From assembly GCF_036507355.1 (NCBI RefSeq), contig NZ_AP027877.1: 64,000 bases of DNA. One strand, written 5' to 3'. Positions 57,591 through 59,964 of this stretch are shown one piece after another (the first letter of the stretch is position 1; each line of letters opens with the position of its first letter). Made by a program: the position numbers and the translations under genes. A model generated the notes under the pieces. That model was given only the letters and a program-made list of their open reading frames with translations, did not search any database and had not been told where the DNA came from. The DNA comes from Escherichia coli. GTDB lineage: Bacteria; Pseudomonadota; Gammaproteobacteria; Enterobacterales; Enterobacteriaceae.

Positions 57591-59131
57591 AACACTCAAA
57601 GAAAGAGGTAATTTTAGAATGAAATTATCTGTGATGATTATTAATACACTGCAGAGAAATAAAAAACAATCTGAAGCATGCTCTGAAACATCCTACTCTG
57701 TCACTCTAATGATGGCACCTTGCTCTTCTTATAAAGAAGGGAACAATTAAGAATATTAAATTTTCAAACTTTCATCAACTTCACATCAAGAAATTAAAAA
57801 ATTTAAACATTAATCTAAATAATAAAAACCTGATCACATAATCGGGTACGATTTTATCCGATAACTATAATGCTATAACTCTGGGAAATGGTTGGAATAC
57901 ACCGCTGGGTGCCATCTCTTTTTACGCTGCCCGAGCGAGTAGTAAGTTAAATAATGATACCAGACACGAAGGTACGAGCTATCAGGTCGCCTATAATAAA
58001 TATCTAGTACAAACAGCCACTCGATTTAGCGTGGCCGCCTGGCGTTATGCTTCGCAGGATTACAGGACATTCAGCGACCATCTTTACGAAAATGATAAAC
58101 ACTATCATCAGAGTGATTATGATGATTTTTATGATATTGGCAGAAAAAATAGCCTTTCTGCCAATATTATGCAACCTTTATCCAATAATCTGGGAAATGT
58201 ATCATTAAGTGCGCTTTGGCGGAATTACTGGGGGCGAAGTGGAAATGCTAAAGATTACCAATTCAGTTACTCCAATAACTGGCAACACATTAGTTATACT
58301 TTCTCTGCCAGCCAATCTTATGATGAAAATAATAAAGAAGAGGAGCGTTTTAATCTGTTTATCTCCATTCCTTTCTACTGGGGGGATGATATTGCCAAAA
58401 CACGTCACCAAATTAACTTATCGAATTCGACCTCATTTTCCAAAGATGGCTATTCCTCCAACAATACTGGAATTACTGGCATAGCCGGTGAACATGATCA
58501 GTTAAATTATGGTATATATGTTAATCAGCAACAACAAAATAATGATACCTCGCTTGGTACGAATTTAAGCTGGAGAACTCCCATCGCCATAATAGATGGC
58601 AGCTATAGTCATTCTAAAAACGCCTGGCAAAGTGGTGGAAGTATTAGTAGTGGATTAGTTGTCTGGCCCGGTGGTATTAATATCACTAACCAGTTATCCG
58701 ATACATTTGCAATTCTGGATGCGCCTGGGTTAGAAGGTGCACATATTAATGGACAAAAATACAATCGAACAAACAGCAAAGGCCAGGTTGTTTACGACCT
58801 GATAATACCTCATCGTGAAAACCATCTGGTACTTGATATAGCAAACAGTGAAAGTGAAACAGAATTGCAGGGCAATCGTCAAATTATTGCACCTTACCGT
58901 GGAGCAGTTTCTTATGTGCAGTTTACAACTGACCAACGTAAGCCCTGGTATATACAGGCACTGCGTCCCGATGGTTCGCCATTAACCTTTGGCTATGACG
59001 TACTGGATCTCCAGGAAAATAATATTGGAGTCGTTGGCCAGGGTAGTCGCCTTTTTATTCGCGTAGATGAAATTCCGGTGATGCTGCCAACTTACTGATT
59101 TAGTGTATGATGGTGTTTTTGAGGTGCTCCA

Positions 59132-59407
59132 GTGGCTTCTGTTTCTATCAGCTGTCCCTCCTGTTCAGCTACTGACGGGGTGGTGCGTAACGGCAAAAGC
59201 ACCGCCGGACATCAGCGCTATCTCTGCTCTCACTGCCGTAAAACATGGCAACTGCAGTTCACTTACACCGCTTCTCAACCCGGTACGCACCAGAAAATCA
59301 TTGATATGGCCATGAATGGCGTTGGATGCCGGGCAACAGCCCGCATTATGGGCGTTGGCCTCAACACGATTTTACGTCACTTAAAAAACTCAGGCCGCAG
59401 TCGGTAA
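59132..59407 (+). CDS. insA: IS1 InsA (transposition repressor / N-terminal part of InsAB' transposase)
   Basis: 91-aa product [43 protein letters not shown]... Confidence 0.95.
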
Positions 59408-59829
59408 CCTCGCGCATACAGCCGGGCAGTGACGTCATCGTCTGCGCGGAAATGGACGAACAGTGGGGCTATGTCGGGGCTAAATCGCGCCAGCGCTGGC
59501 TGTTTTACGCGTATGACAGGCTCCGGAAGACGGTTGTTGCGCACGTATTCGGTGAACGCACGATGGCGACGCTGGGGCGTCTTATGAGCCTGCTGTCACC
59601 CTTTGACGTGGTGATATGGATGACGGATGGCTGGCCGCTGTATGAATCCCGCCTGAAGGGAAAGCTGCACGTAATCAGCAAGCGATATACGCAGCGAATT
59701 GAGCGGCATAACCTGAATCTGAGGCAGCACCTGGCACGGCTGGGACGGAAGTCGCTGTCGTTCTCAAAATCGGTGGAGCTGCATGACAAAGTCATCGGGC
59801 ATTATCTGAACATAAAACACTATCAATAA
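59326..59829 (+). CDS. insB: IS1 InsB (transposase catalytic part, expressed by -1 frameshift as InsAB')
   Basis: 167-aa ORF overlapping insA in the -1 frame; ...[44 protein letters not shown]... Confidence 0.93.
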
Positions 59830-59964
59830 GTTGGAGTCATTACCGAAATTCCCACTGGAATAAAAGTTGCTCTCAATGATGAACAGAACTTATTCTGTAC
59901 TATTACTTTTCAACACGTTATCGATGAAAACAAAACATATATATGCCAGTAAAAGGAGTTTACT

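Follow-up and report, generated by a model that had tools for sequence, protein, structure and literature searches.

The usher Z0022/ECs0022 of Escherichia coli O157:H7 was classed as 'Yeh-like', a gamma4 type, in Table S2 of Wurpel et al. 2013 (PMC3559732), and this type was reported from phylogroups A, B1, D and E and was absent from B2 and from K-12 (Wurpel et al. 2013, PMC3559732). The locus is O-island 1 (OI-1, z0020-z0025) of O157:H7 EDL933, in which z0021 is fmrA, a flagellar motility repressor; O157:H7 cells become more motile when z0021 is deleted and lose their motility when it is overexpressed (PMC10877973, PMC9387321). The yehDCBA operon of K-12 carries an usher of the same gamma4 sub-clade as the usher described here (Wurpel et al. 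2013, PMC3559732). It occupies a different chromosomal locus and is a distant paralogue of the operon that we studied. The genes of the yeh operon are ordered as major subunit, chaperone, usher and adhesin-like gene, as in the OI-1-type operon.

In the O157:H7 reference genome, the OI-1 operon is annotated as a fimbrial protein, a chaperone and an 816-aa usher, and the order of an intact operon is espX1, major subunit, chaperone, usher and tip adhesin. This O157:H7 cluster is probably the 'loc1' of Low et al. 2006. K-12 carries at the same rpsT-nhaR locus an IS1A element (insA1/insB1), of the same IS family and in the same orientation as the IS1 reported below, together with a 138-bp 'fimbrial family protein' remnant. 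There, IS1 stands in place of the whole stretch that begins just past rpsT and reaches to the final ~140 bp of the adhesin gene, with the loss of espX1 and the usher gene, and it has no target duplication, unlike the IS1 that we describe. The K-12 state is an independent and more advanced stage of decay. A shorter form of the usher gene is also known, and RefSeq names it 'fimbria/pilus outer membrane usher protein; incomplete; missing N-terminus'.

We analyzed a 64,000-nucleotide stretch of E. coli DNA (the window) that carries this shorter form. The evidence below makes us nearly certain that positions 57842-59952 are the inactivated usher remnant of an E. coli Yeh-like (gamma4)/OI-1 fimbrial operon, which was broken first by a deletion and then by IS1. 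Its decay has two steps, an old and widespread deletion followed by an IS1 insertion specific to this strain, of which the original prediction saw only the deletion. The fimbrial type, the annotated pseudogene allele and the IS are all already known.

Layout of the locus and the usher remnant

Within the rpsT-nhaR island, the remnant has espX1 on one side and nhaR on the other, at a site collinear with those of O157:H7, strain 6EVA and strain 042. On the plus strand, rpsT (55422-55685 in the ORF listing of the window) is followed by an intact gene for the 473-aa type III effector EspX1 (56169-57590, GC 31.4%), identified from its ORF and from homologous RefSeq loci annotated as espX1. The espX1 gene borders the fimbrial cluster on its left and belongs to the same AT-rich island (55951-60961), the mean GC of which is 37.8%, versus 55% in ileS-ribF. 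Then come the retained upstream (regulatory or leader) region of the fimbrial operon (57591-57841), the two pieces of the usher pseudogene (57842-59076 and 59853-59952) with IS1 between them, and an intact fourth operon gene of 319 codons (59965-60924), all on the plus strand; nhaR and nhaA lie downstream of the latter on the opposite strand. An Rfam scan of 55000-64000 gave no match within the fimbrial remnant. The sole match in that interval was a sok antitoxin RNA at 63529-63681.

About 250 bp of AT-rich sequence with a 43-codon ORF had been noted after the EspX-like gene, and we found 251 bp of 27.5% GC, with the ORF at 57619-57750. This ORF is unannotated in every homologous record inspected, and the region around it is collinear with the intact locus of strain 6EVA (L001) up to the deletion junction.

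The usher frame opens directly after an in-frame TAA (57839-57841) and ends at the TAA at 59950-59952. The plus-strand translation from 57842 reads SGTILSDNYNAITLG...AAWRYASQDYRTF and corresponds to no more of an 816-aa usher of the chaperone-usher class than residues 374-816. In the intact O157:H7 usher, Pfam places PapC_N at 24-159, Usher at 176-733 and PapC_C at 743-804. In the remnant, the Pfam scan found no PapC_N (PF13954), and the match to Usher (PF00577, E=1.7e-83) covers profile positions 201-549 of 549, whereas the intact O157 orthologue spans positions 2-549, so that the domain is not full-length. The NCBIfam usher model NF011763 (826 positions) is matched at positions 375-793, and PapC_C (PF13953) is also incomplete, with positions 2-39 of 66 in front of IS1 and the other 32 codons 776 bp downstream. 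The prediction that the frame follows a stop codon and lacks an N-terminus was therefore borne out. The proximal piece (57842-59076), placed by Pfam, NCBIfam and alignment with the O157 usher, corresponds to about residues 374-784, which cover the distal part of the beta-barrel, CTD1 and the beginning of CTD2. A start codon, a signal peptide, an N-terminal domain and a plug region are all absent from this piece; because the first in-frame start codon is a GTG at 58031, the remnant has no signal peptide. When IS1 and one copy of its target duplication were removed in silico, an open frame of 444 codons was restored, 97.1% identical to residues 374-816 of the O157 usher. The dN/dS between the remnant and the O157 usher of the full operon was low (0.16), a value that cannot show relaxed selection because most of the divergence predates the deletion.

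We then aligned the window with the intact operons of O157:H7 (OI-1) and strain 6EVA, and with other E. coli at the nhaR-rpsT interval, as the original prediction had proposed. Three blocks were obtained against 6EVA: window 55000-57847 aligned with L001 501-3348, window 57845-59076 with L001 5791-7023, and window 59845-62000 with L001 7016-9171. The deletion is therefore exactly delimited, with a length of 2,442 bp (L001 3349-5790), and its end points share only the 3 bp GGT (window 57845-57847, plus strand, from a three-way sequence comparison) as homology. The junction fuses a point 44 nt upstream of the ATG of the major subunit to usher codon 373/374. The deleted segment contains a 177-aa fimbrial subunit (Pfam Fimbrial), a 227-aa chaperone (PapD_N and PapD_C) and 46% of the usher, that is, 373 of 816 codons and not the 5' third that had been estimated. 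The predicted loss of the 5' part of the operon, with the 3' part of the usher and the adhesin gene left behind, is what these end points define.

Neither the major subunit nor the periplasmic chaperone of such an operon is present at the locus, as both genes lie inside the deleted segment. The missing parts were also not found elsewhere in the window. A tblastn search of all 64 kb for the major subunit, the chaperone and the usher N-terminus gave nothing better than E=1.3, and blastn with the DNA of these parts gave one 16-nt chance match only. The condition that would have refuted the original prediction, an usher N-terminus and a chaperone gene in another part of the window, thus did not arise.

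These data show one deletion by illegitimate recombination at the GGT microhomology, in which the leader lost its final 44 nt, the genes for the major subunit and the chaperone disappeared, and usher codons 1-373 went with them. With these codons the usher lost its signal peptide, the N-terminal domain at which chaperone-subunit complexes dock, and positions 1-200 of the barrel as modelled by Pfam. The lost region includes the plug, as established usher structures place it. Given what is known of chaperone-usher assembly, the production of a fimbria from this locus should be impossible because no major subunit, chaperone or exportable usher remains, and the remnant would be a non-functional pseudogene. 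When compared with O157:H7 OI-1, the window agrees in its site (rpsT-espX1-...-nhaR) and in its genes, and the two usher proteins are 97% identical over residues 374-816; O157:H7 alone has the major subunit, the chaperone and the full 816-aa usher, and its adhesin gene is frameshifted, whereas in the window the first 2,442 bp are gone, IS1 lies in the usher gene and the adhesin gene is intact.

The span 57842-59952 had been read as one usher frame, and IS1 had gone unmentioned. We found a complete IS1 of 768 bp at 59077-59844 (plus strand) that splits the span. It starts with GGTGATGCTGCC and ends with GGAGTCATTACC, it contains an InsA ORF, and it has the features expected of an IS1 element: a length of ~768 bp, terminal inverted repeats, insA/insB' and a duplication of 8-9 bp. 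It differs from IS1A of K-12 at 2 positions in 768 bp (99.74% identity) and is the single IS1 copy in the whole window. The 8-bp target duplication, GAAATTCC, is present on the left at 59069-59076 and on the right at 59845-59852. IS1 interrupts the usher at about residue 784, within PapC_C, and severs the distal piece (59853-59952), which comprises the last 32 codons with the stop codon. In a sister genome (GCA_047852605.1, L008), which matches the window at every position of 51169-59076 and 59845-63000 (7,908 and 3,156 bp, 100% identity), the 8 bp occur as a single copy, the site reads uninterrupted as GATGAAATTCCCACTGG, and there is no IS1. Because the sister genome is identical over 11 kb and yet free of IS1, the insertion is very recent. 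In this second step, which occurred in this strain only, IS1 transposed into the remnant at 59076/59077, duplicating 8 bp and cutting off the last 32 codons.

On the basis of these results, the proper annotation is a two-piece usher pseudogene (57842-59076 and 59853-59952) with IS1 between the pieces and a Yeh-like/OI-1 fimbrial operon as its source. A label as a new or incomplete fimbrial system would be wrong, and the locus has little importance beyond annotation.

The downstream adhesin-like gene

The last gene of the operon (59965-60924) is present and intact, with an AAGGAG ribosome-binding site in front of it, and its 319-aa product has a signal-peptide-like N-terminus. Searched by its own sequence, this protein matched nothing in Pfam, NCBIfam or the PDB. 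A word-indexed homologue search found close E. coli relatives only, and an exhaustive HMMER search yielded full-length homologues at 21-43% identity. When 14 members of the alignment were scanned (the 319-aa query, 11 distant homologues at 21-43% identity and 2 close relatives), 8 of them matched Pfam Fimbrial. An AlphaFold model built on the alignment of HMMER homologues reached a pLDDT of 81.9, and its best Foldseek matches in the PDB were FimH, FocH, CfaE, PapG, CupB6 and LpfD, all two-domain tip adhesins, over ~330 columns with E down to 2e-10 and a probability of 1.00. Whole-chain TM-scores were low (0.3-0.4), as is expected if the angle between the domains differs. It is reasonable to regard the gene as encoding a predicted two-domain tip adhesin, with an N-terminal receptor-binding domain and a C-terminal pilin domain; the structural model thus agrees with the earlier description of it as an adhesin gene. 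It would be an orphan, without its cognate assembly machinery at the locus.

Between the window copy and the O157 copy there are 18 substitutions, and the frameshift of the latter is absent from the former. In O157:H7, a change from A7 to A8 at nt 292 splits the orthologue into a 5' ORF of 108 codons and a 3' ORF. Because the usher is Z0022 and the numbering runs outward from nhaR, the 5' ORF should be z0021 (fmrA), and the 3' ORF would then be z0020. In the evenly spaced sample of 60 genomes, in which deletion type was assigned by annotation name only, an intact copy was counted at 18 of 34 deletion-type loci and at 9 of 16 loci of the full type, and a pseudogene at the remaining ones (16/34 and 7/16); the gene is therefore decaying in both backgrounds. 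Its dN/dS against full-operon alleles was 0.19, which is uninformative on later selection because most of the divergence predates the deletion.

We considered whether the locus is still partly alive. Transcription would then still be driven by the retained upstream region and pass through the usher stub into the 319-aa gene, which would have a role independent of fimbriae, with repression of motility as the model, and IS1 would be a second, polar blow to the function of that gene in this strain. Several observations are in keeping with such a role. The 251 bp upstream were spared, as the deletion begins only 44 nt before the major-subunit ATG; the 319-aa ORF, with its strong ribosome-binding site, is intact here and in more than half of the sampled deletion-allele genomes; and in O157:H7 the frameshift gives rise to a 108-aa N-terminal ORF beside usher Z0022, where z0021 is known to affect motility (PMC10877973, PMC9387321). 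Against it, the gene is a pseudogene in 16 of 34 deletion-allele and 7 of 16 full-operon genomes, which does not agree with strong selection, and its product has a signal-peptide-like N-terminus and a predicted adhesin fold rather than the fold of a regulator. Promoter-like sites also did not exceed chance: a scan of 57400-60100, which carries no information on expression, counted 9 such sites versus 7.7 expected from shuffling, and 3 terminator-like sites versus 1.9, likewise not above chance. We consider a partly living locus improbable, though it is the strongest of the alternatives. Somewhat more doubtful still is the suggestion that the deletion allele has been kept frequent by a pilus-independent, FmrA-like regulatory role of the 319-aa gene, transcribed from the retained upstream region; if that were true, IS1 here would be a fresh knock-down of the function of the 319-aa gene.

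Alleles of the locus and the order of events

To count the deletion allele, we used a 120-bp probe centred on the junction and required an end-to-end match. The identical junction was present in 2,427 of 5,426 complete E. coli genomes (~45%), and in ~1,200 more only one half of the probe matched. The deleted segment, scored as present at a coverage of at least 80%, was found in 1,203 of the same 5,426 genomes, and the K-12-type IS1 state with its flanking deletion in 543. In some E. coli there is a further state, in which the interval is empty or filled by GH31 and MFS genes. The deletion is the commonest allele of the locus and no peculiarity of this genome. In L002, L003 and L007, the records inspected, the truncated-usher annotation of RefSeq starts at this junction. 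In the 60-genome sample, the annotation was carried by E. coli B, 55989, O104:H4 2011C-3493, O111:H8, O121 RM8352 and others; O121 RM8352 is 99.8% identical to the IS1-free sister genome over 2.3 kb. The identity of the junction across genomes, rather than a phylogeny, argues for a single ancestral deletion event that was later inherited and recombined, and the allele has since spread to ~45% of complete E. coli genomes.

The RefSeq truncated-usher allele and the window share this junction, whereas IS1 at 59076/59077 was not found in any of the 5,426 complete genomes, so that the deletion together with this IS1 is a state of this strain only. Three apparent matches to the IS1 junction were rejected, as they were IS1 copies elsewhere in the locus. 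Over 24 kb of core genes, the highest identity of the window to any of these 5,426 genomes is 99.1%.

We also asked whether IS1 itself had caused the loss of the 5' half of the operon through an adjacent deletion. Such deletions do occur at this locus: IS1A of K-12 lacks a target duplication, with its flanks at L005 661 and 7168, and in strain 042 ~50 bp are missing beside IS1. In the window, however, the junction at 57845-57847 is 1.2 kb away from IS1, the clean 8-bp target duplication indicates a simple insertion, the junction is present in 2,427 genomes without IS1 at 59076/59077, and the sister genome, otherwise identical, has the same junction and no IS1. This refutes an origin of the deletion from IS1, for which we see next to no chance, and IS1 is unrelated to the deletion. 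That the short form is ancestral and that O157:H7 and others acquired the full operon by insertion of the subunit, the chaperone and the 5' half of the usher is equally far-fetched: although the short form is the commoner allele (2,427 versus 1,203 genomes), it starts in mid-domain at Pfam Usher position 201 of 549 and lacks both start codon and signal peptide, the family models align with the full-length usher from end to end, and it is not credible that an insertion exactly completed the frame with PapC_N and the first 200 barrel positions.

The preferred reading, a deletion followed by IS1, which no observation contradicts, places the window in a series of decay states at one chromosomal site. 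This series could serve as a lineage marker, and it illustrates the repeated targeting of an AT-rich island by IS1.

Full operons had also been placed at the nhaR-rpsT site in other E. coli and, as bcf, in Salmonella. The first part held, as shown by O157:H7 and by the genomes that carry the deleted segment, but the second did not. We extracted the nhaR neighbourhoods of 80 GTDB species representatives and mapped rpsT, ribF and the island genes within them. BcfF (NF011738, 374 bits) and the second bcf chaperone (NF011739) were found at L020 390-1629, ~7 kb upstream of nhaA. Salmonella bcf was rejected as a positional counterpart, since it lies beyond nhaA, on the other side, in two subspecies other than subsp. 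enterica, which the 80 loci did not include. In S. enterica subsp. diarizonae CCUG 30040T and subsp. arizonae CCUG 6322T, rpsT follows nhaR by ~90-135 bp and the interval is empty. Among the 80 loci, the fimbrial remnant was found in one only (L009), a contig of E. coli that had wrongly been labelled an Alistipes MAG. In most Enterobacteriaceae, rpsT lies ~65-130 bp after nhaR. The gap of E. albertii holds an espX1-like fragment only, and a GH31 hydrolase and an MFS transporter occupy the site in E. whittamii, Escherichia sp. E1V33, several Citrobacter species and Klebsiella spallanzanii.

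IS insertions in the fimbrial cluster and the K-12 state

We found at least five IS1 insertions, each at a different position, within a single AT-rich cluster of about 5 kb. They lie at 59077-59844 in the window, at 5282-6049 of the strain 042 locus (L006) and at 4620-5387 of the strain W137 locus (L007), and in strains EF7-18-51 (match H74) and 148 (match H134). The orientation of IS1 was that of the operon in all four cases examined (window, K-12, 042 and W137), and the 8-bp duplications of two IS1 insertions, GAAATTCC and CGAAATTG, have GAAATT in common. Furthermore, the usher of O55:H7 DEC5B carries an IS2. 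Taken together, these data suggest that the AT-rich cluster is a putative hot spot for IS1.

The gap between rpsT and nhaR in K-12 was set against window 55951-60786. Sequence comparison showed that the K-12 gap contains an IS1A (2438-3205 of the K-12 locus, L004) without a target duplication, and that its flanks correspond to positions 661 and 7168 of the O157:H7 locus (L005). Thus, in K-12, IS1 takes the place of espX1, the entire fimbrial cluster and the adhesin gene, of which only about 140 bp remain. This state, which was found in 543 of the 5,426 complete E. coli genomes, looks like the product of an IS1 insertion that would have been followed by one or more adjacent deletions.

Frameshifts in A runs and the apparent origin of fmrA

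The adhesin gene is intact in the window (59965-60924), and its O157:H7 counterpart (L005 6345-7305) is frameshifted by a change from A7 to A8. The usher of strain 6EVA is also frameshifted, owing to a homopolymer run that is lengthened from A6 to A7 (L001, about 6079-6105). Both frameshifts, in different genes of the fimbrial operon, lie in A runs, and A-tract slippage is thus a recurring way of inactivating its genes.

The 5' fragment of the frameshifted O157:H7 adhesin gene has 108 codons, and its start resembles a signal peptide. Based on the gene numbering, this fragment of a two-domain tip-adhesin gene appears to be fmrA (z0021), a reported motility repressor of O157:H7 that is said to act on FlhDC (PMC10877973, PMC9387321). 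A piece of a tip adhesin would be an odd origin for such a regulator.

Relatedness of the locus and other occupants of the rpsT-nhaR gap

We compared the 24 kb of core genes from carB to ileS (window 30000-54000) with the 5,426 complete E. coli genomes, and the top identity was only 99.1%. At the fimbrial locus (window 55000-62000), the IS1-free sister genome (L008) is 100% identical to the window, IS1 aside, and 99.8% identical to O121 RM8352. The source of the window would be either an under-sampled lineage, possibly Shigella-like, or a recombinant mosaic.

A 5.5-kb contig (CASFSC010000151.1, L009) from a MAG labelled "uncultured Alistipes sp." encodes an NhaR 100% identical to that of the window; it also bears the adhesin gene and an usher remnant of the deletion type. 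This contig is E. coli DNA that was wrongly binned into a MAG of Bacteroidota.

Between nhaR and rpsT, E. albertii NBRC 107761 (L013) lacks fimbrial genes and has an espX1-like fragment (11140-11655; 65% identity over 172 aa), suggesting that the espX1 part of the island, at least, may be older than the split of E. coli and E. albertii, or may have been acquired twice. The gap can instead hold a GH31 glycoside hydrolase together with an MFS transporter. This pair occurs in some E. coli (LWY24, L089 1594-5046), E. whittamii, several Citrobacter species and Klebsiella spallanzanii; besides L089, the loci are L010, L012, L022, L030, L045 and L046. In other E. coli (L090), the gap is empty, at about 95 bp.

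Downstream of nhaA, Rfam placed a sok antitoxin RNA (RF01794, 122 bits) on the plus strand at 63529-63681. It adjoins an ORF at 63589-63831, and homologous records give the name mokC to the gene found there.
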